Below, in pieces: positions 1,664 to 64,000 of a stretch of 64,000 nt of DNA. Source of the DNA: Ophelia neglecta. Taxonomy: Eukaryota. Positions within the stretch are counted from its first letter, which is position 1. Each line of letters opens with the position of its first letter. The translations under genes and the position numbers were made by a program. Location of the stretch: NCBI GenBank assembly GCA_965285935.1, contig CBDIWN010000008.1, forward strand, positions 806,001 to 870,000. Direction: 5' to 3'. The notes under the pieces are model-generated. The model worked only from the letters and a program-made list of their open reading frames with translations, was not told the origin of the DNA and searched no databases.

Positions 1664-4600
1664 TCTTTTGTAGATTTGGCAACACGAATGGATGTGTGTT
1701 TCCATGTCTGTGCACTACTGGTTGTGACAGGACGACATGGGCGTGTTTGTCCCCAGGATTATGTCAGTTGGACGATCCCTCGACAGCCGGAATAAGGAGA
1801 ACCGGGGCTGGCTGTAGAATAGGTAAACCTTTCCGTTTTTCATTACGTTGGACACATTTTAACAACCCATTAATGTGTTTACTACATTGGGAATATAGAT
1901 GCAATTAGTTGCTCACAAATATCGAAAAATTTCGGAAAGAAAGCTTTTTATCAATGTATCAATATTTTGTTTTAAATTGATAACCACAATCAAGATTAAA
2001 TAGGACTAAATTTCCAAAACACGAATAGTAGGAATAACATAGTTGAAGGTTCACATAAACCGTTAAAAGAATAAACAAAATTGATTGACTTAGGTATTAT
2101 TTACAGTGTTAGACACTGAATTCCCAGTCACATTATTTGCCGGATCACCAATACTACTCACAGAACCGGCAGACGATTACAAATACTACTTACACAATGA
2201 CGAGAGTAGTTACCGGGGAGACGATTACAAATACTACTCATACAAAAAACGAGAGTAGATATCTGACAGACGATTTAAATCAGTAGTCACGAACGACGCA
2301 TTAAATCGCTCCCAATTCGTCCCCACAATTATAACACAATCAGGGAAGATATGTTATGGCCTATATTACCACACTTTGCATTCATTGTTCATTAAGAATT
2401 GGGGAAAAGACATAAATGAAAGTAGAAAAGAGCGGATAACAAATGTTACTATTCACTGATATTGAAATTTCTATGGATATGTAATGTAGCTCGGGGAAGT
2501 CCTACCAGAATGGACAATGGGATAACTCCCACGCGGGTTTACAGTGGATGGTATTATTACCAATAGCATATACGAATGTGAAAATCTGCATTTCTAGTTC
2601 AATTACAATTGGGACAAGCCGGACAAAGTGTACAGCCGGGAGAACTTTAAATACAGATACAGTTAATTGCTAACATTGAATTTGTTATTGTTAGGTAATG
2701 TAGCCCTTGGAAAGATTGCGTATCAGAGTGGACAGTATACTAATTTACGCGCTGGTCTGGCCGTTGACGGATTCATCACAACGAATATAAGTCGGTGTGC
2801 ACACCCTGACGCTGGGCCAGGGAAAAGATCTTGGTGGTACGTCGACCTCCTAGAGTTCTACACGGTTGTCAGTGTCACCATTTTTAACAGAAAGGATATA
2901 CAGTCCAGGGCCTACAGTAAGTTAGTGTAGCTTAAAATGGTTATAATGTTTTATTTCTAGTGAACCTGACCTTTCAGACAGTTTGATAATTTGTTATGAT
3001 CAGGTTATAAAACAAAGGTAATTTTATTTCGAAGCATACAGTTAAGTGAGATATTTGAGGAATTATATTGTTTGGACAAACGAAAATTTACACTAGTTTA
3101 TGACTATGGTCAAATGATGGCCGTATCTCTTTATGATCCAGGGAACAGCCTAGCATACTACTAATTGGTCAAATTATCCGGAGAAAGACTGTCTAAGTAA
3201 GTTTTATGATTAAAAATGTAATAACCATCATTGTTTGATTACAAGTTAAGAAGTTCTTGACTGATTAATGCGTATGTGTTACTTGTTATGAAGGAATAAA
3301 CGAAATTTGCCTGTGCTGTTAAAATAATGAATTTAGGAGCACAAGCAAAAACTACAATTAAGATAATAATCCGGAAACTGGTAAAGCCCTCTAATAAAGT
3401 ACTGTTAGTGTTTCAGCTAACTTTTTCCATATCTGTGACTCTATGTATCTTTACCCCTTATCAGGGGTTTCAATTTGCTTATGACAACCGGGTGACAAAG
3501 TGTGAATTAATCTCGTCAATGCCAAAGACTAAGGCTGTCTAGGTTAACTATATGAGAGGTGGGGATAAGGGTGTAAGTCTATAAACCCAAACTACACATG
3601 GAAATTACCCTGGTTGATAGAGTTCGGATGCTTGTATGAGTGGGAATGTGGGAGAGGATAATTGAAATAATGTGAGGAGGGGATGGAAACATAAAATACA
3701 CAATTGTTTGTGTGATTGCGATTTTGATCGAAGCGTGACGCAGTAGATAATAACTAAATAACAATAACAGGTAAAGAGTTCATTCCACCCTCCCCCCCCC
3801 CTCCACCCCCCCCCCCCCCCCCGCAAACCTTCAGGGCTAAACCAAACGTATATAGTGTTAAACAAATTGACTTAGTCAAAGCTACGTTGGTCACAAACGT
3901 GTCAATAAAACAAAGGCAGGCGCCTCTGCATTGCTTTGAAGACTTTTTAGCATGTTGTGTAAAAGCTCCAGTTACTGATGGTGCTAGGACTTTGTTATAT
4001 CTCCTGCTGTTTTAATTAATAGAGCGAACAGGACAGTTTCGACTTGGAATAGGAAATGTGACTGATGGTGACAAGACTGATCTCTGCAAGGACTATACGA
4101 AAATCATACCTGAGGGGGGACACGACACCATACAGTGTAACTCACCAGTTACTGGCAGATACGTGACCATTATCCGAGATGCAAACGGATTTCAGCCCCG
4201 ATTTCTCGGACTGTGTGAGGTTATCGTTCAAGGATATAAACCAATCAGTACGGTCTTGTCCTCACTCTTTCCATCCAGTATTCGTTTTGACTTTGATCGA
4301 AATATATGGTGGCACTACATTTACTTTCATAATTACGTGTGCATACCTTTTTACAGGTAACACGGGGCATTAAAAATAAGCAAATACAGGGTGTAAAAAC
4401 TTATGGCGAATTATCACCTAGTTTTTGGATGTATCTTTTAACTTTAGTTTATCGAGCTTAGATGCTCAATTCTTAATTGCCTGTATTAATTAATTCAGAA
4501 AAATAGTACACCTAAAATCATTCTTATTTGGTTTATTCCTTTTTTTTTAACTAATGCCTGAAGGAAGCTGACGAATTATGGCAAGTTATGTCTAAGAATG

Positions 4601-14500: not shown

Positions 14501-17500
14501 ATAAAAGAAGGTTGGAATGGCCCAATAATTAGAAATTATTCTGAAATCACACTGACATGATATTGTTTGCCGCGTATCCACTCCCGTTGTTCAAAGAAGA
14601 TCCGCATGTATTTTGTAAGTCCGCATTTGTACACTGCGGAATAACTTCCGAAAAGCTTCATTGATTGTAGGACCAGCTCATCCAGAGCATTATTATATAG
14701 AACGGTTTATAGGATAATGCTGGTTGCGCTTTTCTATAGTATGAATGATAAACAATCCAACGACCGTAGCGTTTACAGGGAGGAATAAACAACGTTTGAG
14801 GAGATTGATGTTTTCTTTTATATGCGTTTTCCTATTTTAAGCTATGTTGCACACGCGTGGCGAGGTGAAATAGCCTTTGAGGACGTTTCAAATTTAGTAA
14901 TCGCCCTGCCATTCTACATAGGTGGGAACAACTCTTTAAACTAAGGCTTTGCTGTAAATATATTTACATTAACAGGAAATGAACACATATGTGTAATTCT
15001 TGTCAATTTATTTTAACTTATTTATTGATAAATAATATATGTATTAGTTACTAAAAGAATTTTATTTTTAGGGAAGGACGCGCAATTGTTAAGAATAAAT
15101 AGAGGGGATTTCAACCGGTGTTTCCACGGTGATATTCCTCTGGCCACAGTTTTAATGCCCATTATGTAACTCCTCTAATCTTTAGCTAGAAAATAGGCAT
15201 AATCCTAACATTTACACTCTCATATAAGCGCGATCTTGAATTTCTAGACCTGGTCGTCTACCTATTTACACCCAGCTTTTAACTTTGATATATATACCTT
15301 AGACAAAGTAATTGGATTATACGACAAGCATTGAAACAAATTAAAAGCGTATTTGTCTGCCAGTTTGTAGATTTGGCAACACGGCGGAATGTCTGTTTCC
15401 ATGTCTTTGCACTGCTGGCTGTGACATAACGACAGGAGCGTGTTTGTCCCGAGGATTATGTCAGCTGGACGATCCCACGACAGCCGGAATAAGGAGAACA
15501 GGAGCTGGTTGTGGAATAGGTAAAATTGTCGCTTTCGATTATGATAGTTGCGAGCCATGATAATTGTAATCATCATGAAGCGGATGAATGACCATTTTGT
15601 TTTGTCCGCCTGGTGTTCACTCCCGGTTTTTACTAAGCGGTTACCTGTTCGATATAAGTTAAGAAACAGCTCGATTTTTCTGGTTATTTTACCCGCATCT
15701 TTAAATCAGCAAGTGGGTGTATAATATGGAAGGCAGAAATGTATTTCAAATATGCCAGCGCACTCGGAGTGTCTATCAATAATTATCTACGGGTAGATAT
15801 AACGAAATTGTACATTAATTCCTCATTTAGAATTACGGTAACCAATGTAGAAGGCGGCGGATGCTGATAAAAAATCAAATAAGTTACTGACAATTTAACT
15901 TGTAATGTTTAGGTAATGTAGCGCTTAGAAAGCCGGCCTATCAGAGTGGAACCTGGAGGAATTCACAGGCGGGTTTGGCCGTGGACGGTATTATTACCGC
16001 TGACATATCCCAGTGTGCTCATTCTGACGCTAAGGCTGGGAACAGATCCTGGTGGTATGTCGATCTCCTAGAGACCTACACCGTTATCAGTGTCACCATC
16101 TACAACAGAAGAGGTTCACATTCCGGTTAGTTATATACTTTCAAGGTTTTATTTTTAACTTGACCTTCTGTCAGGGAGTGGGTTCAGGTGACATATCGAG
16201 AAATGTAAAATTGAAATGGACAGGATATAAAAGAAGGGTAATATACCTCTACCTTTATGACAATTAAGTGAGATACTCAAAAAAGTTTTTCAGAAAGAAA
16301 AAAAGTTTTTCAGAAAGAACGAAGATGTATACTGATGGGTAACTATGAAGGCTACACTACATATAATTTAGTGCCCAGCTCACTAGCTATTGGCTACATT
16401 ATCTTAAGAACTGGGCTTGGAAGAAACACCACCTAATAAAGGCCATGCAATGAACAATTTATTGTACGATCACTGCCTTTCTGCCTATTTGATATTTTTT
16501 TGATATTTTTTGGGGGTTCTTGTTATAACAGATTGGATGATTTTTGCCGAATAATTATTATCCAAATTATAATCATAAGTAATATTTGAGAAATAACTAC
16601 GGAAACTAGTTCCCGAGTACATTTGAACATGATAACTAGACTTCATAACTCGCCCAGTATGCCGAATTCGTCTCATTTGACTGTAGGCGTCACGGGATAC
16701 TGTGTTCACGGGTGACTCCATGCACAATGTATCGTCAGAAAAGAGACAAAAACAAGAGACACCACAGGGAAGTTACTACTGGCACTTTGAGACCGATGCC
16801 TTGAGATAATAACCAAAAACACCAGCATTGCCAGCATTTACCTTGAGATAGTTAGAATACATCAAGTTACTAATCTCACACAGACACTGGGCTATAAATG
16901 GTAACGGAGGCCATAGCGACTGATCTCCCAGAGGCAGGGTACATATTAAAAAAATTACTGACCCCTGGGGTAAAACTATTCCAGACTAGCACAGAAAGAT
17001 TGTTTGCTGCAAATGCAAACCGACTGTGGTCTACATTCCAGATATGACTTTTAACAACTGCAATGCTATGCTTATGTACATAAACATGACTAACAGAATT
17101 TTGCAATAAAAATTCACACTACCAACATTTTGTAGAAGTCTATGTCCTTTTGGCATATTATGCATATAAAGCCCCATCATTGATGTCGCAATTAAAGTAC
17201 TGTTATTGAGGTTGCAAGGGTTTTTCTTCTATTTCTTACAACTAGAGCGAACAGGACACTTCCGACTGGGAGTGGGAGACGTTACCGATGGTGACCAAAC
17301 CAGTCTTTGTAAGAACTATGCAGGCGTCGTACCTGAGGGAGGACATGACACCATAGACTGTAACTTGCCAGTTACAGGGCAATATGTCACCATAATCCGA
17401 GATGCAAATGGATTTGAACCCCACTTGCTTGGACTGTGTGAGGTTATGGTTCATGGATATAAACCAATACGTATGCTGAGTAGCAATATTTTTGTTTCAT

Positions 17501-28900: not shown

Positions 28901-31900
28901 AGTCACTTAATAAACAACGTCACTAGATGCACATCAGGAAGTGCGTGGCTCGTGCTAACGTTTAAAAAATGAATGTATTTAAGATTTTGGGAACACGAAA
29001 TCATATTTTTATTTGATACACACCAGCGTGTATTATTAAACGTCTGAACTAAGCGAACACTTTTCTGTAAACCAAGAAACATCTTCACAGCTCTAAATGG
29101 AAGACGCCGCCAATATATCAGACATATTTCATAGCAAGCTAAGACAGTATTAACTGTAAAGTATGTTACTAAAGTATGTTACGAGAGGTCCCCAAACCTT
29201 TAACTCTAAAGCATGACAACATCACACTGTCATTAAGTACTTTAAAAACAATGCCTCAAACAAAAGGTGACGTTGTATTTTAGTTATTAATAAATAACAT
29301 CTCTAACTTTTACGCGATCGGCATTGTCTAACAGCCCTGTGATGCTAATGATTTGTTTAAGACATTTTCCGACAAAAACCCTTAGTGTTGCCATTATTTT
29401 GTTTTTCCCATAATTAAAGGTTACCAGCTGTTGCTAACATCTTTTTTTGGTAGCCTTTACCATCACAACGCGTTTCAAAATTTTGTCAGCCTGATTTTAT
29501 TCCTTGTCCTGCATGCCGAGTTTCGAAGTTTACACCTAAGAAAATGGCAAAAAAAATTATGCTCTGACTTTTTTCCAAATTTTATCGTTCCGTTGTTTCG
29601 TTGTCTGGAAATTGGCTCCTGTCCCGAAAAAGGCAATGACATCGACTTAAATCGAATGCATGGAATTAAGCTAACTGCTGTATTGGGTTTTGCACGACTT
29701 TCACTTATCGCTTGCAGCGCTCTTAATTTATATTGATTGATACAAATAAAAAATCTTAGTATCAAAGATACCTCAAGCTAGTAGTATGCGCCTTTATATT
29801 TTAGCTTACCAACTTCCTGGTCGACTACTCGGTCTGTCTTCACTACGCAGCCTGGCGCATTGCTTCACTGATGGAAACATTATTGACAGATCGCAGGGTA
29901 TATAAAATATTAATATGAACTGGTTGCCTAAAACAGAAAACCGTTGAAATAAAGGATTTCGAGCCGCGCGAATATCACGAACGGGAGACTTGCATACAGC
30001 CTAGCATCAGATGTAATAGTCAAGCATCAACCGAACAAACTTACGGCTTCACCAAGGGCGAAATCTCCCCATGATGTCCCCAATAAATTAACACTGCCCA
30101 AATCTCAACGGCGAACGTGATGAACAAAACTGATATATTTCTCGCCTAAACTAGATGCACTGCTTCAACTTTGATACATATTAATTACTGGGCAGGGCTC
30201 TTGCGCTTTCTATTGTAGTTTTATACCGTCATAGGAGGCTATCTTTGGTAGAACCTGTGTATGTTCCACGGGTAAATGGCACAAACTCTGCCGCATCGAT
30301 ATCCCTGGAAAAAGAGTTGTTCCAATCAGTAATAGTTTTGGGAAAATACATTTGGTAGGATGAGGTTCTGCAGGTTGGTATTATGAAAAGTTGTCTGTCC
30401 AATCCTCTGGTATTGTATCCCCAAGATGAATGAAAGTAGCTATATGGGAATGAAGATAGATGGGGAAGAATCTGACACAATATCATAAAACTTACAGAGC
30501 CGTTGGCATTTTTCTATAGCAAACATTTATTACTGAAACGAAGTACCATTCTAATGTTTCCGAGCTGGCTGGTATAAAATAATTCATACCTTTTGAAATA
30601 TGTATTTATGTGAGTCACGAAAGCATGAAAGTGACGTATTACTTAACAGCCTGTTGAATTAACACATTTGTATTTAAATAGGTAACGTTGCTAAGGGGAA
30701 GCCAGCTTTTCAAAGTGGACAATATGGTAATTTAATCGCGGGCTTGGCCGTGGATGGTCTCCTCATTAAAGATGACCTGACCTGTGCACACCCATTGGCT
30801 CAGCGTGGTATGAGAGGTTGGTGGTACGTTGATCTAGAGGATACCTACACAGTAGTCAGTGTCACCATCTTTAACAGAGGTCAACCTCCGTATTACAGTA
30901 AGTTGGCGATGGAATATTTGGTAAACTGACATAATGCTGGCCGTAAATATACATCGGTTTTATTTTAAGTATGACATTCTATCACCGGCATAAGGGGCTC
31001 CCTAGAAGGGTATGCAAACAAAAGATGAAATTTATGTTCCCACGGATGAAGATTTATTGCTACTAAAAAAATGAATTGGTGTAATCGCGACCACAAATAT
31101 AATTGTTCATATGTACCAACAACTCGATATTTTTCCATCGCAGTGGGGTCGCGGTGGGAATGGGTGGCCAATTTCTTATCATTTATTTCTCTTCGTCTGC
31201 TAGTAGCTGCGTCACTCACAAACATATGATTAATGCAATAGAAACAAAAGTATTTTCTACAAGGGCAATATATATTATTTAAACTTCTACTTTTTCATGA
31301 AATATAATCATATATCAACTCGTGAAAAAAATGACCTACTTATTTCTCGCAAACATTGTCAAATTGGCAGATATTATCTGCTTCAGACCGTGATATTAAG
31401 TCATAAGAAAGATCAGGTAAAGATTTCTATTTGAAAACTTTAAACGTATTTAAAAGGGCAGTAGATCAATACAGCCAACCGTTGGCTTTTTATATGTTGA
31501 ATTAGAAAACGGGTACAATGTAGACTAATATTCTTTAATATAATACATTACCCGATAACTGTGCTCTTGAGAGCGAGGCCATTGCGTCCTTTGGGCTACT
31601 GCAGATGTATCCGGTATTTTTTATTCACAGAACGCACTGGTAACTTCCGCCTTGGAGTTGGTTCCCAGACTAACGGTGACCAGACAAGTCTTTGTAAGAA
31701 ATACACAGGTGTAGTTCCTCAGTCAGGACACGACACCATACAGTGTAACTCACCCCTCAGCGGCAGATACGTCACCATTATCAGATATGCAGGCGGGTAT
31801 GATGACAACCAATTTTCTCTGTGCGAGGTTTTAGTTCATGGATACAAACCTATTGGTATGTTAAAACCAGTACACAACGTCTTCCTTGGATGTATGTAAC

Positions 31901-34900: not shown

Positions 34901-35277
34901 CAACGACATTGGTTTCCACCCTTGTATAAGTAAATTACAACGAGCAAATTATTTTCGAAGTTTTTTTATCGAAGCTTTTTTATTTCGAAGCATATTGATT
35001 GAGGATCTTTTTTGTGATTATTGCAGATGTTAGCCAACATGTATTTTTTGCAATCTGAAAAGTATAAACATATTAATGATGTTCATTATTTAACCATTCT
35101 TGAATTTCACGTGGAGGTAAAGGCCTTTATGACTTTTAATAATCTAATATTTGAATTAAAGGACGGTTTTATATGTTTACAGCTAACCTGACGGTAGAGG
35201 GCAATCCAATGTACGATCAATTACACGCTTATTCGGATTATGAAGATGTAAACAAGACAGTTGACACCAAGGAATAA
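25417..35277 (+). CDS. Paralog C: F-type lectin + EGF repeats + FN3 single-pass receptor with NPxY / tandem Tyr-motif tail (~669 aa)
   Basis: Exons 25417-25492 (signal peptide), 28657-28809, 30682-30897, 31631-31855, 32378-32464, 32628-33227, 33330-33659, 33963-34065 (TM GALAAIVIACVTSIITVVIGICCLIF), 34284-34408, 35183-35277 (ANLTVEGNPMYDQLHAYSDYEDVNKTVDTKE*). All introns GT-AG; total 2010 nt, open frame. Confidence 0.9.
30290..30480 (-). mobile_element. 3'-end relic of a non-LTR retrotransposon ORF2 (CR1/L2-like)
   Basis: The minus strand encodes YNTRG..FIIPTCRTSSYQMYFPKTITDWNNS, matching the RT..Y..SFFPRTIxxWNxL-type C-terminus of these elements. Confidence 0.55.
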
Positions 35278-40652: not shown

Positions 40653-43600
40653 ATGGCTCCTCTGATTAATGTGTGCTTGATAGTCAGTTCCACTGTCTTT
40701 CTTACAGCTAGAGTTGTTGGTCAACAAGGTTAGTAAATGTATCTTAACTATAATTATGTGTATTACATTTATACAATCTTGTTGTAGGCAGCGGCATGAT
40801 TTGATATTAAAATGTGTGAAAGTGTGTTTTATTTGAGACACAATGCAAGACGATAATGAATGAGCTACTCTCTTGTCACATATAAAAATAATAAAAGTGT
40901 GAGTTGCCTAACGGTTATATTTTATGTTGAATTTTGGTGATGCATTATCCCTAAATGTATCAGAAATATGTGGCCTGGTCGAAGCCGACGATACATCTTA
41001 AAATCTTAACCAAAATCGTAACACTAACTACAGACCATCCCCTTCGCACCAGTCGAGGTGAATTGTTCTGAATCATTTGCTTGCTCCACAATTTATAATT
41101 CCTGACCTCCAGTACCCTTGCGACTACCCAAAGATCGCTAAGAGTATACCTTCATCACACGCCAAATCTAAATGTATAAATTAAATTGAGAATAAGCGAA
41201 AGGTATAGTTGCGGCCCTCAAGGGTTACACGGGGCAGAAGCCTTCAATAGTGAGAAACGAAGTAGGGAGAGAGGGGGGGGGGGGGAGCAGCTGTCCGGGA
41301 TTTGGCATGGCTAAAGTTTGACCTCCCATAAGCTAGGTATAATATTACCATTATAAAGTAAATGTAATAAAGCGATGTAAAAATATTAGTGACCTCCGCC
41401 AGTAAGGTTATACATATTTCACGGCTTAAAATGGTCTCTTGGTGCAAGAATGAGCTTCGCCAACTTCTAAATCCGTCCATGGAATCTTAGTCAAATGCAT
41501 GACTGATTGTTTGCAAAGTGGTGAATTCTATACGTGAAGTATGTGCATACACGCTACGTGCAAATACCATCACCATCCTATAATACACAGTCAATGATCA
41601 TCGCTTTGTATTGGAAGTAGGTCAACGACTAAATAGCTTAATACTTTGAAAGGCAAACTTGTCAAGCTTCAGTATTCATGACTCCATTTTGTACTGTTCT
41701 AAAGAATATATATCGATGAATATCTGGTCTAGTCTGAAACATTTGTCTCAATCTATTACGCTAATACACAATTACAATGAAGCCGACGGAAAGTTCTTGG
41801 GTGCGGTAAGGCTAGACATACGCGAGCACTGCATTTCTGTCGTGCAAGTGCAAAGGGCAGTGACTCCCGCTTTCGCGCGATGGCTTACTTTCCAGAAGAA
41901 ACAGACTTTAGTGCAAAACCGCTGACCCGTTAAGAGAGTTTTTTAACATCAATTGTAACATTCAAACTGTATATTCTTCTTCAGGTCTATGTAGATTTGG
42001 TCATACTGCGGACTGTGTATTTCCCTGTCTGTGTATCAATGGCTGTAACAAACTTACAGGAGCTTGTTTAAATGGAGGACTGTGTTATTGGGATGATCCT
42101 GCCACCATGCGGAGAACTGGACCAGGGTGTAAAATTGGTAACCTTTCTCATTTTTGTCTATAGTACATAGATCATCTTTGGAAGTATTATACAATCTACT
42201 AAGTAAATTAATTGTATCCCTTAAGTCATTTCTTACAACGCTCACCAAACGAAAAAGGCACCCGGGTCACACTCTAGCTGGCTATAGCTAAACTGTTCAA
42301 AGTGTTCATAAAAACATAATTATTTTCCATTTAGAATTAAGAAATCCATTTTCTATGAACTCCACATCCAATACATATTTCATATATCCAAACCAGGAAA
42401 TATTACCACGTGTGTATATGAAAGTCTTAATGAACAAACACCATTTATGTATTCAGTCTTTTCAATTAAATCTCCAGATAACAATTATCATAATAGTAAA
42501 AATGTAAGCACCCGTTAATACTTCGTTAATACATGATTCGTTCAAAAAGCTAAGACTATCACAAACACCGGTTTATTACCAATGATTAACATACAATCTT
42601 TGCCCTGAAACAGAGAAATTACATAAGCTCATTTAATTTAATTTAAGCTCACGTGAAAAGTGTGCTATTTATATATTAAAACCCGTTATTAACTGTGATG
42701 AATATAGCCAGTAAGTATATTTGACTACCATTCATGTATTCCGTCCTAACCTGGATAGGTTCCCACTTATGAAACAATCAGGAGTTCTGACAAACATAGA
42801 CTTTTAGAAAGCTTTAGTAATATAATAAGTTGTTTCCATACTACACATAGGGATCTTTTTGTATAAAGAAACTTGCAATAACTTCTTTGTCGTGGACGGG
42901 TTCACCATTAGTAAGAAAATAACTATGCTATAACTATGTTTTCTTCTAGTAATTACCTCCCTCGTCATTTTTTATAATATTGTGTTTAGGTAATATAGCA
43001 AAGGGGAAGCCAGCTAATCAAAGTGGTCACTGGAATAAGCTTGTAGCAAGTCTGGCAGTGGATGGTATAGTCAGCACACATATTAGTCAGTGTGCACACC
43101 CTGATGCAGGGTTTGGTAAGAGAGCATGGTGGTACGTAGATCTACAAGATACCTACACAGTGACTAGTGTCACGATCTACAACAGAGGTGATTATCCGGC
43201 GCATGGTAAGTGGACGACTGGAAAACTAACTCTGGTTACTATGCGCACGCAATAGGGTTTGATATATTACATGGACAGAAAACGGGTGTAATGTGTAGTA
43301 TTTTACACAAGAGGGCAGATTTTGTTCACCCGGAGCATCGCATGAAATAATCCAAGAAGTACAATCAGAAAAAAAATAATGTTGTAAGAATTGTTATGAA
43401 CACAATACAAAAATAGAAACAAATAAAATAAATTGAAAGAAGTATTTTTTGGCAACATTACAGGTGTATATTCATTCACTTTTTCGACCATTTCATTTAA
43501 TGAGATTTTATTATATAAATAAGTTGTGTCTCAAATCATACGTCATATATTGTGTAAACATCGCTAATATAACATTAATCTCTGCATTGAAAATGTGCTA

Positions 43601-46600
43601 AAAGACCATCATTTGATTCTTATTTGAACTGTTTAAAGACATGCAAAGTGTAAAACCGCTGACCCGTTAAGAGAGCGTGCTCAAACTTTATACAAATTAA
43701 TCTATAATATGCAACCCACTAATAATAACATATATGAAATTTCAGGTGTTTAGGTTAGTGGTAATATTAAGTTTTATTCGATACTGCCCTTTGCCTCTGC
43801 ATCAGTTTAGATACTGTCATCTGCCATTACTATCAGCACAAATTTTCCATTCTGAACCCCATTCCACTGAGAGCGCCTTGTTCATAGCGCTCGATTCTGC
43901 ACAGATTTAAAGTCACTACTTAGCTCCCGGTAAGGCCTATGTGCCACACCTGGCAGGCAAATTCCAACACTGGACGCACAATTGAGTTATATTCTACCAA
44001 TAAATCCTGAGGTGACAGGACACTTTTTGGGCTGTTTTAAACTGTATGAATGGGGAGAGAAGCTCGGGTCATAATATAAGATAAGTGGGTCTCCAATGGC
44101 AGATCGCTAGAGAGCTATGCTCCCAGCAAATTACAGTGAAAATGTCTATCTTCTATTCTGACATTGTGATATGGGGTTATTTTTGGCCGAGATCACCATT
44201 TCTTTGGTTTTCCTGGCGTTCAATTTTGTTATTTTAGGCCAGTTATTTATTTTCACAGAGCGTACCGGTAATTTTCGCCTTGGAGTTGGTCACCAAACTC
44301 ACGGGGACGTTACAAGTCTCTGTAAATTGTAAACGGGAATCGTTCCTCAGGGAGGAAATGTTACCATACAATGTAACCCGTCTCTTAACGGCAGATACGT
44401 CACCATTATCAGAACGCCCGAGGCCACTGTTGAACCTCAATTCCTTGCTTTGTGTGAGGTGATTGTTCATGGTTATAAACCTATTGGTATGTCAAACCCT
44501 CACATCTCGAATATATAACTTAATAAAAAGTGTGTTTATTTTAAATATTTGCTTCATGCACAAAGAGTAAATTTCGATGAGTAGAATCTACCTTTTGGTT
44601 ATTGTCGCCAATTACGAATTTAAAATTTTATCGGTGGGCTGTTTACATTTGATATTAGATAGATATAAACGCACTACGGAAAATTATATCAACCCTCTAA
44701 ATTTACCTTGTTGTTTGCCTGAAGCTTGCAGTTGCTTTTTAATGCCCACTTGTTATTACAGTGTGTGAGAGTAGCCGTTGTGAGTCGTGCGATCCTTTAA
44801 TTGGCTGCTCTACATGTACCCAGAACTCTAAGTACCCAGAGTGTAAAGGTAGGAGTACCCTGTTAACTTTCATTATATGTTAGACAGTTTGAGGTAGGCT
44901 TACCATGTTAACGTACATTATCTTTTAGACAATATCAAGGTAGGCTTACCGTGTTAACGTTCATTATATGTTAGACAGTGCCATAATAGTAACATCCCGT
45001 ACCATGCTAAATAATAATAAACGTTATAAACTTGAATTATGACAAATGATCTATCTTACAGAATGTGACAAAGACCATTATGGTATCAACTGTAATTACC
45101 AATGTAGTGCGAATTGCCTCTTTGTTCAGGATCCCAACTCTCGGCAATGTTCTCTCTCTGATGGAACTTGTATGAATGGGTGTATTCCAGGCTATTGGGG
45201 AAATACATGTAATAGTGGGTGCAGTACTAACTGCCACCGTATTGATAGCTTAGAAGTCTGTAACCGACACTCTGGTAGTTGTACTCAGGGGTGTAACGCC
45301 CAATACTACAGAGATAAATGTGAGATGAGCTGCAGCAATGGATGTAATGATATCTCGGGCTCCAACATTTGTCACAGAGTATCAGGAGATTGTAACAGCG
45401 GTTGTAAAAGTGGCTATTATGGTACGATGTGTTCCTCAACCTGCAGCGCAAATTGCGTTAATCAGATATGTTCTGTCGATGATGGACGCTGCACTAGTGG
45501 CTGTCTGGAACAATACTTTGGAGACCAGTGTCAGAGCCAATGTAACCATAAATGTCTTGTTGTCACAGGCTCTAACATTTGTCACAGAGATACAGGACAT
45601 TGTAACAAGGGGTGTCAAAATGGTTACTACGGTGATACATGTACCTTACCCTGCAGCGACTACTGTGATGGTATAAATGGAAAACCTATATGTGCCCGAG
45701 ACAACGGAACATGTTCCCGGGGTTGTAAGGATGGCAGGTTCGGTGGATATTGTGGCTCAGAGTGCGGTTCAGGTTGTAAGCCGGTCAACAAGACAGCCTC
45801 TGGGTCTTGTGACCAGTTTAGCGGAATTTGTAACAATGGGTGTAAGGACGGTTTTTATGGCGAATACTGCAATAAAACCTGTAATAATCAGTGTCTCGGT
45901 GAGCATAGTAACCCCGGGTGTGACAGGTATAGCGGGGCGTGCGTCTGTCACAGTGGTTTTTATGGGATAAACTGCGATCAACCATGTAGTAGTCACTGTG
46001 AGGCTGTAGATTACATAATGGCTTGTCATCAATACAGTGGAGCATGTAGTGACGGTTGTCAGCTTGTATCGTACCATACATGGTATACTGGAGATCAGTG
46101 TATCCAACCTATTAGTAAGTGTAATCGGTTTCATTCCACTTATTGCATTATTTAAGAAAAAACATTTATAGAAGAATGTAAAATAATCAATGTTCTACCA
46201 GCAAGGGCCCTTGGCTGATGGTTCCTGATGATTTAACGGTCTATTCTCGATTAATGATTTTGCTTTACTACCGTCTATCTACTCCATTTTTATAATTAAC
46301 GAAAGCACATTAATGAAAACACTATCTACTCCGGTTTTGTTAATTAATGTAAACACTATACAAGAATTTTGTTGTTTCATGCGAACAGAATACGTGGAGT
46401 ATCCTGAGGGAAACACAGTTACCATTACCAAGTTGCAAACTGACAGCGTAACCATTGAATGGCCGCATGTTAAAACTATTCCATTGAATACAGCGGCTGT
46501 CTTTGGCTACAAAATCACTGCGTACAGTACAAATAGGACAAAGGTTGAACCGTTTATGATAGCAATCAGAGAAGATGACATCTTAATGAAATACAACCAA

Positions 46601-49600
46601 ACATTGCCAAATCTGGCTGCCAATTCTACGTATCGGATCACAGTAAACATCTATCGGCAATTGCCTGGGATAAAAGAGGAAGACTCCCGCAAAGCCACGA
46701 CAGTATCAGCTACTACTTTGGCTGCACAGGATCAAGGTAAATAAAACTAAAGTCACATTGAACATATAATTATTTTGTCACAAATATCGAAAATAAGTCA
46801 GGAAAAAGTGGTGTCGTATTTAGTTGCGTCAAACGCATATCTTCTCCTGCAACTTCAATATTTTTATGGCAAGCCAAACTATCAGCCGTGTAAGTTTAAT
46901 TCCCCCTATCAAACTACTTAGATTTTGTTAGAACCTATACTTAGCAATATACTTCTACGTGGAATTTATATATACGCAGATATATTAATGTGCAGTAAAA
47001 CCTTTCAGAGGTATAATGTAATTTATAAGACGATGCTCTATACGTTCACTTCATAAGGAATCAAATGATAACAATATGTTTACAACTAATTGACCAACAT
47101 CAATTTCGCATATCTGTGCAATCATCCAGACCCGAGCGTCAGTGCGAGTGGCCTGCCAGGACTGGTCGGTCCTATTACCGGATCTGTCGTGGCCTTCCTG
47201 CTAATAGCTGTCCTTGTTGTAATTCTTGTTGTAGTTTTTCTCAGGTGTGTACAAATTGAAAAATATTCATCTCGTAGGCCCTACGATTTAGGCACATTAT
47301 TTCACATTATGGTTTTAGTTTGCCACATAATTGACAGCACTTCTTGAAAAGGATTACGCAATAACATCGCCACCAATTCTATAACACAAACAACACATCA
47401 TTTTACTATCGTAGAAGGAAATGGCGCAAGAAATCACAGGACAATGTTGGTTCTAAAATTGATGATATGCCAAGTTATGCGTCTGTTAAAAAACCATCCC
47501 GTAAGTAGCGCACCTTTTTGTATGTAAAATAAAATGTTGCTTAGATACTCTCAGTAAAATGCTATGTATGCTATGGATAGGTTTCAACAAGATGTTTTTC
47601 TTTGTTTTTCCAATGCATAGGACGTGCTAAAGACCTTGTCGACACGCAATTTGTGAAAGAAATATGCAACCCAAGCTTTGAGGGTACCTTAGATGAGGAC
47701 AAGCCCAATACGATATATTACGACTTCCCTGCTACAAAAAAACTTGATGAAGGAACTTGTGTTAAAGGGGGAGACCTTGAAGCTTATATTGGGGCTCGGA
47801 AATACACAAAGGATGGTCTGAGAAAAGAATTTGATGTTAGTAACCTTCTGTTATGATATAATTTTATTTTGAATCGGCGTATAAAATAGCTCGAGTTCAC
47901 TGGCTACTCTGCTCAGTTTTAAACTGAAAACTGTAGGTGTGATAAAACTGTAAGGTAAAGCTACGACATGTTTCCAAAGAAATCAAGTTTCTAGACCATT
48001 ACGAAATACCACTACCTACATTTTATGTACCCCGCTGATAACATATATTGGCATTTGTTGTATACATGTTGACAACCAAATCAGGCGGGATTTGCCGACA
48101 TACAACGTGTTTTATTTTCAATACAAAACGAATCTATCATTGTGATTTCCAATCATTGGAAAACCAACACAGCGTTGATGATATCTCAAATCGGATGTGT
48201 TATTTGAAACCATTGTTACCATCACGAATATAATATATAAAATGTGGGAAATTGTCTTTTATAAGGCCGCACACCAAGCTTTTCGCGATTGACATCTAAT
48301 ACCTAGTCATTTTATACGATAAAGTATTGAACTATTTGTGAAGGAATAACTCTTTGTCTATCTCCCTATTTGTTTATTTGTCTGTTTGATTTAGTCCTAT
48401 CATTATATATTTTAAGATTGATTTAAGCAATGTCGGTTTTTTAAGGACCTGCCTAAAGGAGAACTTAACCCGTGTGACGTGGCCAAGCAGCCAAACAACA
48501 TCCATAGGAATCGATTTAAGAACATCAGAGCCTGTATGTGTTTTTGATTATACCCGTCAACTACCTTTTAAAAGTACTTGTTTGACAATTAAATAGTGAA
48601 AAGAACGTAAAGTGGCAATGTGTGGTGTAAAAAGAGCCAACATGAAAATTTCGTGTGTCATATTTCACTATTCATTTCATGAGTCATTTTTCACTATTCA
48701 TTTCACAAGCCATATTTTACTATACATTTCATATACATTTCGACATTAAATGACCTCGCTTAGTACCACTAGTCATTATATCACTATTTATATTTCTACA
48801 GATGACTATTCTCGAGTGGTTTTGGAGGCTACTGTAGATAACTCGGACTACATCAATGCCAGCTTCATTACGGTAAACACGATTACCGTTATATGGAACA
48901 TGGTTTAAGCTTCCTGTAAAACCCTATCGGTAAAAAGTTATAAATGTTGCGTTTATCGAGAAATACAGCAATAAATAATTATACCCTGCCAATTACACAT
49001 TTTAAATGGATGTTTAAGTGTAAGCACCTTAGTGACATTGAAAATGCCATTTACTGATATTATAACTAGTATCCACAAGTACAGATATTGAGCTAGCCGG
49101 CAATTTATCATGGCTATTTCACATCTGTAGCAGAATATTGTATACATCTTTTTAAGTAACGTCTTCAGGCCTGCAATATTCAGTATAGAGAGAGGAACGA
49201 GTCTAATTAGTATTAATGACAACATTGGTCACGTGATTAACATGTATGGTGTAAACAATCAAGTCTTGCCCTAATCAAGCCATTCATTACTAAATAAAAG
49301 TGATAATGGGGTAGAAATTTGGATATCGACTGTCATTTAAGGATATATAAACTATTTATCTATCCATATAAGTGACATTGCCATTTTTACCAATCTTATG
49401 CTGCAATGCATTTGTAGGGGTTTACATGTACCTTAACTGAGTCACATATGCTTTCCAGAGTGTCTCTGATAGTTTAAATAACGTACATCTCAGGTCATTT
49501 TCAATCGTACAATCAAAATGGTGTATACATTCCAGGGTTATCCTCACAAGACAAACCATTACGTAGCCACACAAGGTAAGTGAATAAAGTTCTGATGCAG

Positions 49601-52600
49601 TTATCAAGCAATTAGATAAGTTGTCACAATTCAGGTTTACAAATTCATTAAGATAAAGATTGAAAAAAGTTATGATAATTAAATATAATTTATAATAACA
49701 TTTTAAAACAATATATTAAGAATAAAAATATTAAAACAAAACCTATGCAACTATTTTTATTTATAATTAGAAAATTAAATACCAACAAAATCAGAATAAT
49801 ATTCCAAACGAGTATCAAACACTACTTTTGAAATTTTTTTTTCCAGGACCGAAGCCTGAAACAGCCTGCGCGTTATGGTCTATGGTCTGGCAGTTACAGT
49901 CAAATCGTATTGTTATGGCAACACGAATTAAAGAACTCACCAAGGTTTGTCAGTGTGAAACAGTATGAATTTTATGATATATTGTATTATTTTGGTATTG
50001 AGGTATGAAATCCCGTTTAAGTGTTTCAACAGAAACATTGACCATTCCAATTCGTTTTATTAATTACAGACAAAGTGTGTACCGTATTGGCCCGAGGAAG
50101 TTGGAGAGAGTGTAACCTATGATGATATTACAGTGACTACCACGGCCTGTGATTCATATGCCGACCATAATCTAACAATCATCAGCATACAAAAAGGGGT
50201 AGGTTTTACCTTTTTACACACTTAACTATATAGGTAATAAGTAAACGAACATACATTGGTTTGTGCGTCAATTTCTCTAGTCTTTCTTTTTTGCCTTCAC
50301 ATTTTTACCTATCTATAATAGCACATGTCACGAAATGTACGACAAATCTACGAAAAGCTATGGCTTGCGTCAACAAAATATGCATACCATCTGTCCAAAA
50401 ATAATCAAAATATTCAATTTAAGCCTTTCTTTAGTTTAGCTTATACATGCAGCCCACCGGATTCCCAATACTCATTCATTAGTTTAGTGCCAACTTACGA
50501 GCGCAGTGCTCAGTAGTAATACACTGTAGCTGGAATATGTTATCATTTGAGATTCTCTAACACATGAATCGTCATATAGTGTGGTCACCTTGTCCAACCT
50601 CCGTTTTTACCTATCAATTCAATATATTGCCACCACTAATTAATATAGAAACAATCAACACAATATATATTTGAAATAAGAAAAATAATGTTTTCCTATT
50701 CTAGAATGAACAAAGGACAGTAAAGCACTTCCAATTCCTTTCCTGGCCAGACAAACAGGCCCCAGAGCACGCATTTCCTCTCTTGGCCTTCAGAAGAAAA
50801 CTGAGATCATTTGACGGGGAGGGAACAGGACCAATCGTCGTCCACTGCAGGTCAAATAACCGATTACAAGCACACACTTAGTTTGATTAAGAACAATTCA
50901 AGGGTATTTATAAAGGTACAACACATTTAAGAATAAATATATATAATTTTCTCTCTAGTGCGGGAATAGGACGCACAGGGACATTGATTGCTCTGGACTA
51001 TCTTCTTGACCAAATGAAAGGAGAAGGAAAGGTAGACATCTTCAAATGTGTGACACAACTCAGAAATGAACGCATGGACATGGTTCAATCCTTGGTAAGA
51101 CTTTTTTGTGATAATAGTCTAGTTGAGAGGATTCTAGGCTTTCACATGAGCCAATGTTACATGTTTCATGTCAGCAACCATGAGTGTAGATCCAATGGCC
51201 ATGTGTTGAAGCAATAAGAATGTTGCTTCTAGAAAGCTTTTCGTTTTTATCTGACTCATTGATTATAGAAAGTCGGCCGTCGACTTCTCAAAAAAAAAAA
51301 TTCTTAATGTAGATAGTAGTAATTCATCTTTTAATTATGATGTTCAGTGTTAAAAATTCGATATCAAATTTTGAACCTAGCTACATATCACTGACTGCTG
51401 TTATCCGGCAATTGGTACCATAAGGTAACTTTTCTCCTACTTTCAGTCACAATATGAATTCATTTACGAGGCACTGCTAGACGCATACCAGCAAGGAGAG
51501 ACCGCCATTCCGTGTAACCTCTATCCTGAGAGGTATACACAACTGATAGACGGAAATGAATATTCCAATGAGGTTCCCATCGAAGAACAGTTCAAGGTGG
51601 GTTTTGTATACATATAATTAAATTCCATTCATTTGCGTTTTTGCTGCAAAATTTCATCATTGATTAATTGACAAAAAATTTCAATACATTAGTATTTGGA
51701 GATTAAATTATTATGCCAATTATGAATAATTGCATTTATTTAATCGTATTTGTATCATTTTCTAAATTTACATTCACATTATTCAATATGATAATGTTTA
51801 ATGTATGAAAAAGTGTAAAAGTAAAATGCAATTTATGTTATCTATAAAAACACTAAAATAACAATTTGGCAAATTTTAAATGTCATCCGGTTGTATTTCC
51901 ATCGTACGATACAATCATGGCATGATTTACAGATCCTCTCCAAAATGAAACAACACAAGAAGTCAGCTGACAAACTTAGTGCTCTGAGTAAGGAAAATAA
52001 GCGGAAGAATCGAGATGCTGATATAGTGCCAGGTACATAGTTATATATAACGGATATACAAATTGATCCTCTATGGAATTGTGTGTTCGTTTGCTGAATC
52101 AAATAAGTCAACGCAACCATCTGTGTACTATTGTTTTCCTCTATAGATAATAAACACAGGTTGTTTCTATCTACGAGATGTTCGGGCACAAATGACTATA
52201 TCAATGCCGTTTTCGTCAACGTATGTACGAGTTTAAGTACATCTCAACCTACATTCAGCTTTTCCACCCTAGCAGTTATCTTCCTTTTAGATTGCTGAAT
52301 AACTATTCATATATGTCTTCGCATTAGTGAGGGTCTCCTTAATGATGATTTCCGGCTGATTAGTGGACAATTCTTAATTCATAATTTCACTGTTTTGAGT
52401 CTTTCGTAAGTACCGAATCAATATAACTAAAAAGCCACTAATAGTTGGAATACTCTTGGTTTCTTCCACTATTTATTAGAGTTATCTGTCGGAGAAGACA
52501 TTTATTGCGACCCAATTGCCATTACCTGATACTATCATTGACTTCTGGCGTTTGGTGTACGAACAAAAGTGCCACACTGTGATTACTGTAGAAACATCGT

Positions 52601-53788
52601 CCCCTGACCCCGAGGTAGATGACCGTGTTTCTTTCAAGACAAGAATGCAATACGAATAGCCAGAAGTTAAGTTATCGAATTTACATATATCTAACTATAT
52701 AAACTGGGTCCATATATATCATCAGGATTGTCCCAAGTACTGGGATTTGGAGAAAGGGGAAGTTAGGCATTTTGGTGACCTTGAGGTGCGCATCGATTCA
52801 AAAGACGAAGATGAGAAAGATGTCATAGAAGAAAGAAAATTCACAGTGTCATTTTCCTCAAGTGTAAGTCTATCAATTTAAAACTCATGGATTACTTGGC
52901 ATATGGCAATTATTAAGCGTCAACAGAAATATATTATTTTTGATTACAACATTATTTTAATTATATCGGTTATATAATAAATTACAGAACCAGCCAGTAA
53001 GAGTCTGCCATATATTGTTCAAACAACGTCCAGATATCCAAAATCTGCCAGTCATGGAGGACACGTTAAATTTGTTAGAACGGATTCAGAAGAGTCAACG
53101 ACAAGCTGAAGTTGGAAACATTGTTATGCAATGCAAGTAAGTTATAAACACATTACCACTGTTTGTAAAAGAACTAACACACACATAAATAAGCCAGCTT
53201 CAACCCTATGTTACATCTTTCTTAAAACTCTTCTGAACTCTCATTGCCTTGTGGTCACGCGTGGTAAGGTGATATGTGATAAAGGAGAGTATTGATCTCT
53301 TTAAAGCAGCCCGAACCCTAATTAACTTATCATTTACTACTTCTGTATTTCTCAGAGATGGAGCTAGTCGAAGTGGAATGATATGTGCGGCACATTATAT
53401 GCTGGAGAAGATGCAGGAAGAGCGCGAGGTGGACGTCTTTCTTGCTGTTAGGGTTGTATCTCTACACAGACAACAATTTGTCAACAATTTGGTAAGTAAT
53501 ATAACTAATCGGTGTATTGCCGGAAGGATTTTCAAGAATTGTTCAAAAGGTTACTTTTCTGTAATTGATAAAATAATTTAAAATTTCAAAAGGTCTGTGT
53601 ATATTCAACAACATTAATTTGCAATGATAGTACACTATTTATACATCTGTTATCTGAATCATGTATATTAAGATATCGCCACAGGTAAGATCCATATTTC
53701 CATTTCTTAACAGGACCAGTATCGTTTCTTACATGGTATTGCAATGGAGTATATTACAAGGAACAAGCTCTATGGAACCTTTAAGTAG
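40653..53788 (+). CDS. Paralog D: receptor-type protein tyrosine phosphatase with F-type lectin / 9 EGF-like units / FN3 ectodomain and tandem PTP domains (~1413 codons; one internal TAA at 44330-44332)
   Basis: 25 exons: 40653-40728, 41985-42137, 42990-43205, 44259-44486, 44762-44848, 45062-46114, 46389-46736, 47130-47244 (TM), 47415-47500, 47621-47835, 48446-48533, 48802-48872, 49536-49575, 49847-49944, 50070-50198, 50705-50850, 50959-51094, 51447-51596, 51933-52032, 52147-52220, 52480-52614, 52726-52863, 52988-53136, 53356-53491, 53714-53788. Total 4242 nt with all intron phases consistent. Confidence 0.9.
44847..44980. repeat. Three ~45-bp tandem copies that include the 5' splice donor
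   Basis: aggtagg..tacc.tgttaac.t.cattat.t.ttagaca at 44847, 44892 and 44938. Confidence 0.8.
48446..51596 (+). CDS. PTP domain D1 of paralog D (catalytic motifs intact)
   Basis: Spliced motifs in canonical order: [75 protein letters not shown]. Confidence 0.95.
51933..53788 (+). CDS. PTP domain D2 of paralog D (probably a pseudophosphatase)
   Basis: [42 protein letters not shown]; WPD loop reads RPD; P-loop VMQCKDGASRSG; Q-loop reads FVNNLDQY; TAG at 53786-53788. Confidence 0.9.
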
Positions 53789-61600: not shown

Positions 61601-64000
61601 CCATTTAAGAGTTGTACTTTTCAATATATGTTGAAGAATGCTGTGAAAAAAAACAATTTAGAAAGCTGGCGTGAGCAAAAATATAATGGCCAACTACATT
61701 TGTGATTCAAATATATCATATTTGTCTAAAGTTCTGAACAGACTGTTGCCCTGAGACTGTCTGAACATTTGGTTGTAAATGAGCTCGGAGAGACGTTCCA
61801 GACAACCTATAAACAATAACATAGTGCAGAATAATATTCATTAATTTGTTCATGTCTTTTTATATATCTCGATCTGCCAGCGGCTTTGAAACATTAATCA
61901 TTCATCTCTGCTGGATCGTATACAGCTGAGAGTATGTATATAGGAAGAGAAGCCCTCAATTGGTTTAAATCATACTTGGGTGGTCTTACCGAGAACGTTG
62001 AGATTTGTAGCGACCTGTCTTATCCTACTTTTTTTAAATGTGAGGTTTTCAACAGGGACGTATTCTAGGACATATTTTGTTTCTTATATGCACACTCCCT
62101 TTGGGGGATATTGTAAGTTTTTCTCAACGTATCCACTTTCGTCGATATGCAGATGATACACAATTATATTCCTCGCTTTGATGGTGGTTCATCTGACAGG
62201 GAAACACCATGGAATACAAAGCTAGAATTATGTATCAAAGATTAAAGGGAATGGATAGCTACAAGCTTCGGCCAAAATATTACGACCAGTTAATAGATAA
62301 TGCTGCCATTGCCATTGGAGAAACTGAAGTCATTTGGTGTAAATCAGCAAGAAGCATGAGAGCTATTTTTCAAAGAATGTGGCTCCTGATTAAGCACATT
62401 GATGGCATGTGTTCTAGTGGCTCTGTATACGTAGGAAATATGATTGTTATGGCAATGAATAAGACTGTGATATTACTATAATATAGTATATAGAGCTGTA
62501 AAAACCTATAGTGCAGGAAGAGGGCGGGTCTACACGTGTCAAACAATGTTTGCATGCCCTTTTTCCGATCCCTACCCGAACCAATAATGTCTCAACCTCT
62601 TCCCGCGTCAGACCTGGAGTGAAATGCAAATAAATATTTATGCCCTACCAGAGAAATGCTTGTATAGTATGCATCGCATACAATATGATGCTTTTAAATT
62701 TCTTGTTTTGTATTATTCTATGATTATGAGGATCGTTTTATGCATTTGCTGGTAAAGTGTATTTTCCGTTCTGTTCGCCCTTGTGGTTTACTCAATAGGT
62801 TATTCTATGATTAAATACAGCATAATAGACCAGACTGTTTTATCAGTATTTTGTATAAACAGGTAATATAGCGAAGGGAAGGCCGGCATATCAAAGTGGA
62901 CAAGTTTTCAATTTAGCCGCTGATCTGGCCGTCGATGGTAGAATCGTTACATGGGCATTTCATTGTGCACATCCTGATGCTGGGCCTGGGAAGAGAGCCT
63001 GGTGGTACGTCGATCTAGAGGATATCTACACAGTTGTTAGTGTCACCATCTTAAACAGAGAGGATTCTCCATATCATAGTAAGAAAAGAAAAAAAACGAC
63101 GGCCATATCTAAAGACAGAAATAGAATAATTATCTTAGGTGCACGATAGTAGCATCAATCACATCATTACTTATAATTGTTTTCGTCCCTCCCATGCTGT
63201 TCTCATTGGCAAAAAAATAAATTCTAAATTGTACTTTATGTGTATGCTTTTGATAGACCACCAGTACGAGTATTGCTACTTACACATCTAATATATTTTA
63301 GCATTAAAACTAATTGAAGTCCCATGAGTTGGAGTTCCCATTTAATACAGGGGTCGAAGGCAAATGTAACCTAGGCTTGTGAATAATTCCCTCTAAAACA
63401 GGATACAACTTTAATACAAAATCATTTGCGAAGCAACCATCGCAAAACTAAATATTTTGTGTCCTTGATTGTTAGCTACGGTACTGGTAAAGCAAGCTTA
63501 ACACACAATGTGAATACGTGGTGAAAAGGTAAAGAGGTATTTCCCACAACACACTGTTTTTGGTATTAAATCTTCCACTATTTTATTAGAATTCATTCTA
63601 TAAGTGTAAACTTCACCAACAAAATAGCCTGGTGAGCTACTTAAAAACATGTCAACACAACCTCGAGATAATGTACACATAGCCCTTAAGCAAAACACCA
63701 TTTGTTGATTTATAAATTAATTATCAGTCACACCCATATTCGTCTGTACAACACATGATTCAAGGTTACTGTAAGTGTCGCTCTGAGGACTATGTATTTG
63801 TATCCAGGAATACCATTTTACAGATCTTACAGCTAATTTTCGCCTTGGAGTTGGATCCGAGACAGACGGTGATTTAACAAGTCTCTGTAAGAATTATACA
63901 GGAGTCGTTCCTAGAGCAGGAAACGACACAATATATTGTGACTCGCCCCTCAGCGGCAGATACGTCACCATTATCAGAAATGCAGGCGGGTATCAAGTCC
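58606..64000 (+). CDS. Paralog E: F-type lectin receptor family member, 3'-partial (runs off the window)
   Basis: Exons 58606-58678 (signal peptide MSPIIYICLLVSSSVYRSRVTGQT), 60882-61034 (Cys-rich), 62863-63078 ([39 protein letters not shown]), 63824 to window end ([29 protein letters not shown]). Confidence 0.88.
61480..62450 (+). mobile_element. Decayed CR1/L2-clade LINE reverse transcriptase fragment in an intron of paralog E
   Basis: Frameshifted RT motifs in the correct order: LDLLP..KECLESLAPVYANIVNL..LKNAV, LSKVL..RLSEHL..FQTTY, LDL.AAF, QG.ILG.ILF, RYADDTQLY (about 62143-62170). Confidence 0.8.

Follow-up and report, generated by a model that had tools for sequence, protein, structure and literature searches.

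A premature stop codon in a lectin exon of a receptor-type phosphatase gene of Ophelia neglecta: a probable recent null allele in a variable receptor cluster

Gene D of the window (the whole 64,000-nucleotide stretch of DNA analysed, C16:806001-870000 of the assembly) is a receptor-type phosphatase (PTP) gene with a single in-frame TAA in its fourth exon, and the question is whether this stop is real and, if so, whether the receptor is lost. The cluster to which the gene belongs was examined over the whole of C16 (962,826 bases) and over C7:90.43-91.06 Mb. We consider it likely that the TAA is a real, recent null allele that silences this copy, in a cluster whose members are likely to be rapidly gained and lost; the null allele is probably haplotype-specific.

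Gene D was modelled as 25 exons running from ATG to TAG (40653-53788), with AG/GT ends at all 24 introns and a length of 1412 or 1413 codons, depending on which of two candidate acceptors is taken for exon 9. The predicted product carries, in order, a signal peptide, a Cys-rich module, an F-type lectin domain, EGF-like repeats, a fibronectin type III (FN3) domain, a transmembrane (TM) segment and the PTP domains D1 and D2, and a single TM segment followed by tandem D1 and D2 is the layout of a receptor-type PTP (Table 1). The canonical D1 motifs take the forms WPD, HCxxGxGRT and Q-loop, and all of them are present in D1 of gene D. In gene D the Tyr of the pTyr loop is replaced by Phe, as it is in six of the seven other complete genes of the subfamily; the remaining one gave no match to the search motif. 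Codon 173 is the sole internal stop, so that the frame from leader to PTP is interrupted there, and every other exon was free of lesions; the initial annotation, which had reported the in-frame TAA, no further lesion in 25 exons and intact D1 motifs, was correct on each of these points. Protein searches with exon 4 and with exon 7 returned no match at E 0.001, and a search with exon 6 returned 11 matches at 32-36% identity, the named ones being bivalve proteins.

Table 1. Features of gene D, its paralogues in the window and its broken siblings (window positions, except where C16 is given)
Feature	Position	Strand	Basis or remark
Exon 1, ATG and signal-peptide-like leader, gene D	40653..40728	+	hydrophobic N-terminus judged by eye
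Exon 2, EGF-like Cys-rich module, phase 1-1, gene D	41985..42137	+	exon model; no match in Pfam
Exon 3, F-type lectin N-terminal half, phase 1-1, gene D	42990..43205	+	PF22633, PF00754; PDB 3cqo, 1k12
Exon 4, F-type lectin C-terminal half, 228 nt, phase 1-1, AG/GT, gene D	44259..44486	+	PDB 3cqo FBP32, E 1.5e-9
Premature TAA, codon 173, gene D	44330..44332	+	in frame in exon 4; 154 nt before next junction
12 bases identical in gene D and C16:87.3k around the stop	44327..44338	+	bounded by differences at 44326 and 44339
Exon 5, short Cys-rich module, phase 1-1, gene D	44762..44848	+	exon model
Exon 6, EGF-like Cys-rich repeats, 1053 nt, phase 1-1, gene D	45062..46114	+	homologues named MEGF6/MEGF10-like or PTP
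Exon 7, FN3 domain, phase 1-1, gene D	46389..46736	+	Pfam fn3 E 1.6e-4, under curated cut-off
Exon 8, TM segment, gene D	47130..47244	+	hydrophobic run judged by eye
Exons 9-10, juxtamembrane region, gene D	47415..47835	+	exon model
Exons 11-18, PTP domain D1, Q-loop, gene D	48446..51596	+	motifs; Pfam Y_phosphatase on exon 16
Exons 19-25, PTP domain D2 and normal TAG, gene D	51933..53788	+	exon model
Gene A paralogous lectin exon, Tyr TAT	4023..4247	+	
Gene B paralogous lectin exon, Tyr TAT	17246..17470	+	
Gene C paralogous lectin exon, Tyr TAC	31631..31855	+	
Gene E paralogous lectin exon, Tyr TAT	63824..64000	+	cut by window end, start approximate
C16:398k, one TAG, codon 487, exon 6	C16:406.5-407.6k		otherwise intact
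C16:576k, stops at codons 1252 and 1291	C16:576-594k		both in exon 22, 138 nt, phase 0-0, D2

Across C16 and the C7 segment we counted 72 copies of the lectin exon and 22 PTP-bearing loci, of which the gene D subfamily accounts for 9, including a partial one, and a second subfamily for 13. The codon that is TAA in gene D encodes Tyr in all four of its paralogues in the window, as had been claimed, and in the 72 copies it reads TAT 65 times, TAC four times, TTT once and TAA twice. Beyond the window, the same TAA is found in a second copy, and stops occur in many further ones. Nonsense codons are present in three of the eight complete 25-exon genes of the gene D subfamily, the remaining five being open with the same catalytic motifs. 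The other two broken genes are C16:398k, the closest PTP sibling of gene D overall, and C16:576k, where the effect of the stops would be confined to D2, through truncation or shortening. Of the 13 loci in the second subfamily, 3 are defective in splicing or frame within exons 11-25, and an automatic scan flagged a stop or frameshift in exons 2-7 at 23 of the 72 loci, a rough count given that the manual check was confined to the gene D subfamily. Since lesions are this frequent among siblings, gene D is no singular case of a phosphatase gene that is flawless but for one stop. One TGA is common to C16:464k and C7:90930k, which lie in 98%-identical blocks and on that similarity are likely an allele pair; stops therefore recur across the haplotypes in the assembly. 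Within the clade of gene D, three of the four C16 members are broken (87.3k, 398k and D), which leaves 655k as the sole open one there; the two C7 members are both open, and the two stretches thus differ in which lectin variants can signal.

The second copy with TAA at this codon, C16:87.3k (C16:87253-87609), lies 763 kb from gene D and is heavily decayed, having an AA acceptor on this exon, an early stop in exon 6 and no PTP exons. Its exon 6 also holds a 5,576-base LINE-like insertion (C16:80496-86071), in which frames resembling ORF1, an endonuclease and a reverse transcriptase, and a tail of short repeats, were labelled by eye. A search with the TAA pattern gave a third match, on C1. In this region C16:87.3k belongs to the six-member clade of gene D, and an alignment of exons 4-5 from 19 genes contains one site only that is exclusive to the two. 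The chance of coincidence was estimated from 309 possible nonsense changes, assuming 10-20 independent hits; a match to the gene D stop would then be expected by chance in 3-6% of cases, and some match anywhere in the cluster in 14-46%. From these comparisons, micro-conversion or descent is favoured, though not decisively, over chance for the shared TAA, and parallel mutation is a possible source. A very short gene conversion may have carried the stop between gene D and C16:87.3k, in either direction, although the identical stretch of 12 bases is short for a conversion tract. In humans, a disabling mutation can pass from pseudogene to gene by conversion, as from CYP21A1P to CYP21A2. The likeness is that a disabling change is common to a multiply broken and an otherwise intact copy of one cluster; the differences are the shortness of the identical stretch here and that the direction, and even a shared origin, are putative.

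If gene D is a null allele, exon 4 would be spliced in as in its siblings and the mRNA would probably be degraded by nonsense-mediated decay (NMD). NMD is expected of a stop that precedes a later junction by more than 50-55 nt, and in gene D the distance is 154 nt, with 21 junctions downstream. Any product that escaped would be a 172-residue fragment with half a lectin fold, lacking both membrane anchor and phosphatase, and this receptor would be lost on this haplotype. Of the explanations put forward in the initial annotation, a recent or polymorphic null allele is the one that gains support, from the presence of the stop in the assembly, the splice sites of exon 4 that match those of siblings and the frequency of lesions among these siblings. 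The absence of visible decay elsewhere in the 25 exons counts against a null allele; however, intact PTP exons point to a young hit rather than to a maintained rescue isoform.

Relaxed selection on D1 was considered as a sign of decay and rejected. Gene D has 10 nonsynonymous and 0 synonymous private changes in D1, versus 16 and 20 in the five intact siblings (Fisher p 0.0024). However, at 5 or 6 of these 10 sites gene D has the residue of the second PTP subfamily, which makes them retained or converted states, and over exons 7-25 the nonsynonymous to synonymous counts are 22:9 for gene D versus 58:44 (p 0.21). The D1 changes, being mostly shared with the second subfamily, are consistent with a young lesion. 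The WPD loop (exon 16, 50705-50850) also reads QAPEHA, as in the second subfamily, where the gene's own subfamily has LTPDHP; by comparison of the copies this would be either a retained ancestral state or the result of conversion across subfamilies.

An error of base calling or polishing, with TAT as the true codon and gene D an intact receptor phosphatase, had also been proposed, and we regard it as unlikely. A single base is at issue within an otherwise perfect 4.2-kb frame, and Tyr stands at this codon in 69 of the 72 copies, both of which would suit an error. The substitution error rate was bounded with a 24,526-base duplicate on C16 that shows 6 mismatches and 1 gap, giving at most ∼1.2e-4 per base, with the caveat that joint polishing could hide errors. 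Since 607 of the 12,708 single-base changes in gene D would make a stop, ∼0.02 false stops are expected per gene, versus the three in eight genes observed. The two TAA loci have different letters on both sides of the shared stretch, so the stop was not copied by whole mis-mapped reads, and C16:661k and C7:90868k, which share the same 18-base context, read TAT. Nonsense substitutions are moreover common in the cluster, one of them shared by two haplotypes, and the error bound and this sharing together disfavour the proposal.

Public data bear on the same point. They consist of contigs from three runs of one sample in one study (shares 0.52, 0.47 and 0.45). The contigs match the intron stretches unique to gene D with 0 differences (43156-43286; 101/101 31-mers unique in the examined cluster), and so the public sample carries a D-like copy. 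Among the 18 of 26 pieces listed, six overlap the stop codon by alignment, one of them by a clipped end, and their differences fit paralogues. Depth is zero at 44285-44308, a hole that was set aside as evidence because the contigs are filtered. A contig with the flank of C16:87.3k mismatches the assembly's copy over this stretch: over 44310-44376 it has 4 differences from gene D and the 87.3k copy of the assembly has 2, and the count of four fits a Tyr codon in the contig. If the public sample were the assembled animal, this contig would point to an error. The sample holds a variant of the family that has no match in the assembly and is probably another individual, and the contig then suggests polymorphism.

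A second alternative accepts the stop as real and has exon 4, or exons 3 and 4 together, skipped in frame to give a working lectin-less receptor phosphatase. The claim that exon 4 (228 nt, phase 1-1) can be skipped with the frame kept holds in the exon model, the joint skip of exons 3 and 4 is equally frame-neutral, and D1 and D2 are intact. Skippability is no special trait of this exon, however: all seven extracellular introns of gene D are phase 1, which makes each of the six internal extracellular exons phase 1-1. The stops of all three lesioned PTP genes of the subfamily fall in frame-preserving exons, but such exons make up 2637 of the 4236 coding bases of gene D (62%), so three out of three would arise by chance with a probability of ∼0.24, and C16:398k, the closest PTP sibling, is broken in a different exon. 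Splice sites were scored with a rough matrix built from gene D's own introns. The splice sites of exon 4 are strong, its acceptor scoring 8.4 bits (rank 7 of 24) and its donor 8.1 bits (rank 6 of 24), the same as in siblings, so that weakened or distinctive sites of the kind expected for a cassette or poison exon are absent, and the sole in-frame AG downstream of the stop scores −8.9 bits. Two cryptic donors that keep the frame, at 44267 (5.3 bits) and at 44321 (4.5 bits), were rejected, since their use would drop most of exon 4 anyway.

The fold of the lectin domain weighs further against skipping. Exons 3 and 4 are similar to F-type lectins of solved structure and to F5_F8 models: exon 3 matches PF22633 (E 1.4e-8), PF00754 (E 3.6e-7) and 1k12 (E 8.5e-7), aligning to residues 27-81 of the eel lectin, and exon 4 aligns to the C-terminal part of both FBP32 domains. 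The two exons thus correspond to the halves of the domain in AAA (1k12) and MsaFBP32 (3cqo), and gene D shares with these lectins a putative His-Arg-Arg triad and the CxH and LCEV cysteines, the His, the first Arg and the CxH cysteine being in exon 3. The fucose-binding triad motif is given as HX24RXDX4(R/K), and the cation motif as h2DGx with x a small hydrophilic residue, in the available text of PMC5712786. Gene D has the His, Arg-Gly-Asp and Arg at a longer spacing, H-x28-RGD-x5-R, and AVDG followed by Ile as x at the cation position; it differs also in that its domain is a module of a membrane receptor, cut by the stop. Matched by motif to the residue list in the available text of PMC5712786, exon 4 would supply the equivalents of eel lectin Arg86, Cys108-Cys124, Arg131 and Cys146, of which the Arg86 equivalent would be the third triad Arg and the Cys146 equivalent would pair with an exon 3 cysteine. 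Skipping exon 4 alone should therefore leave an unfoldable half domain, half a barrel with an unpaired cysteine, so that the clean lectin-dead phosphatase envisaged in the initial annotation gives way to misfolding as the more likely outcome; a joint skip of exons 3 and 4 would be cleaner but is unsupported. Taken together, rescue by skipping is distinctly improbable. Two loops of exon 4 (44294-44309 and 44400-44440) are highly variable among copies, with near-identical flanks and mosaic sharing between genes.

A more elaborate version is about as doubtful and, if anything, slightly less credible: stops in frame-preserving ectodomain exons would turn inhibitory-type receptors of the cluster into ligand-blind phosphatases, and gene D would skip exons 3-4 and arrive at the cell surface as an EGF-FN3-PTP receptor, a lectin-independent brake on PTP-less, ITAM-like partners, its stop having arrived by micro-conversion from the dead paralogue. 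A literature search, supplements aside, turned up no paper describing this locus or a skipped isoform. Were skipping to rescue a ligand-blind phosphatase, the finding would matter more; nothing here supports it.

It is very unlikely that the receptor is lost while the locus still yields a useful product, be it the 172-residue fragment in secreted form or a phosphatase made in the cytosol from an internal start. The leader, exons 2-3 and the PTP exons are intact, and vertebrate PTPRE, which gives cytosolic isoforms from internal promoters, offers a precedent, but the C-terminal half of the lectin fold would be largely missing from the fragment, and intact PTP exons are expected anyway after a recent hit. 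Stop-codon readthrough or RNA recoding that restores the full protein can practically be dismissed, having nothing in its favour beyond the intact remainder of gene D, given that termination is tight at UAA when the next base is A, and that no more than 2 of the 72 copies have the stop, of which one is plainly dead.

A real null allele has parallels in snails, the likeness being one of architecture as described in the available text of two reports. The 'scavenger class F-like' groups 1B and 1C of Biomphalaria glabrata LG5R are, as here, clustered single-pass receptors with a signal peptide, a fucolectin/galactose-binding domain and EGF-like repeats, with tails of two PTP domains (1C) or a short tail (1B) and with haplotypes that differ in copy number (PMC13712769). 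The RPTPs of Biomphalaria sudanica SudRes1 likewise combine GBD, MEGF, TM and tandem PTP in a paralogue-rich variable region, and haplotypes there too differ by whole genes (PMC12297450). Gene D fits the layout of LG5R 1C and SudRes1 (leader, fucolectin/GBD, EGF-like repeats, TM, two PTP), and the cluster resembles both in its tandem arrangement with PTP-less relatives and in gene-content differences between haplotypes, taking C16 and C7 to be such. Compared with LG5R, an FN3-like exon is additional in the genes here, as is a kringle in some of them, and PTP-bearing members are more numerous, with 22 loci in the two stretches and 4 genes in 1C (PMC13712769). A link to phenotype is a further point of difference from LG5R, and the tie to schistosome resistance by GWAS belongs to SudRes1 only (PMC13712769, PMC12297450). 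In B. glabrata LG5R, a premature stop that is specific to one haplotype precedes the TM segment of Gene Model 104 (PMC13712769), and the best reading of the gene D stop is an ordinary fate in a birth-and-death receptor cluster, as reported there. As a null allele it adds another loss to a receptor cluster of fast turnover and illustrates cleanly the origin of presence/absence variation in a kind of cluster that snail GWAS has tied to parasite resistance.

Blocks as long as 24.8 kb are common to C16 and the C7 segment at 98-99.7% identity, yet the two stretches differ in gene content. Judged from these blocks, the two are probably haplotypes, C16 being an unplaced or unpurged second haplotype, and the cluster may extend past the C7 segment examined. 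A true allele of gene D was sought on the C7 segment and none was found, the best C7 copies being 89-91% alike over long stretches. C16 alone has 15 PTP-bearing loci; gene D is not the only phosphatase in a family of five genes, redundancy had been understated by the earlier label of a 'putative inhibitory member', and an inhibitory role remains an analogy. The tail exon of the PTP-less gene C (35183-35277) has 40 matches in the cluster, most with Tyr-x-x-Leu, five residues and Tyr-x-x-Ile/Val, an ITAM-like arrangement whose spacing is one short of the textbook ITAM; the first Tyr is lost in some PTP-less copies.

Several further features of the cluster were noted. Gene B has a kringle exon (13933-14241; Pfam E 5.3e-22), which is lacking from the gene D model. 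C16 and C7 show large copy-number differences and a switch of orientation near C16:490k and C7:90.95 Mb. PTP genes are included in tandem duplications of very recent date at C16:144691-193736 and 191726-221627 (99.9% identity), and two adjacent near-identical copies within them have different broken donors. Multi-kilobase repeat arrays lie at C16:944811-962826 and 694-740k, with a period of ∼3 kb at the contig end.
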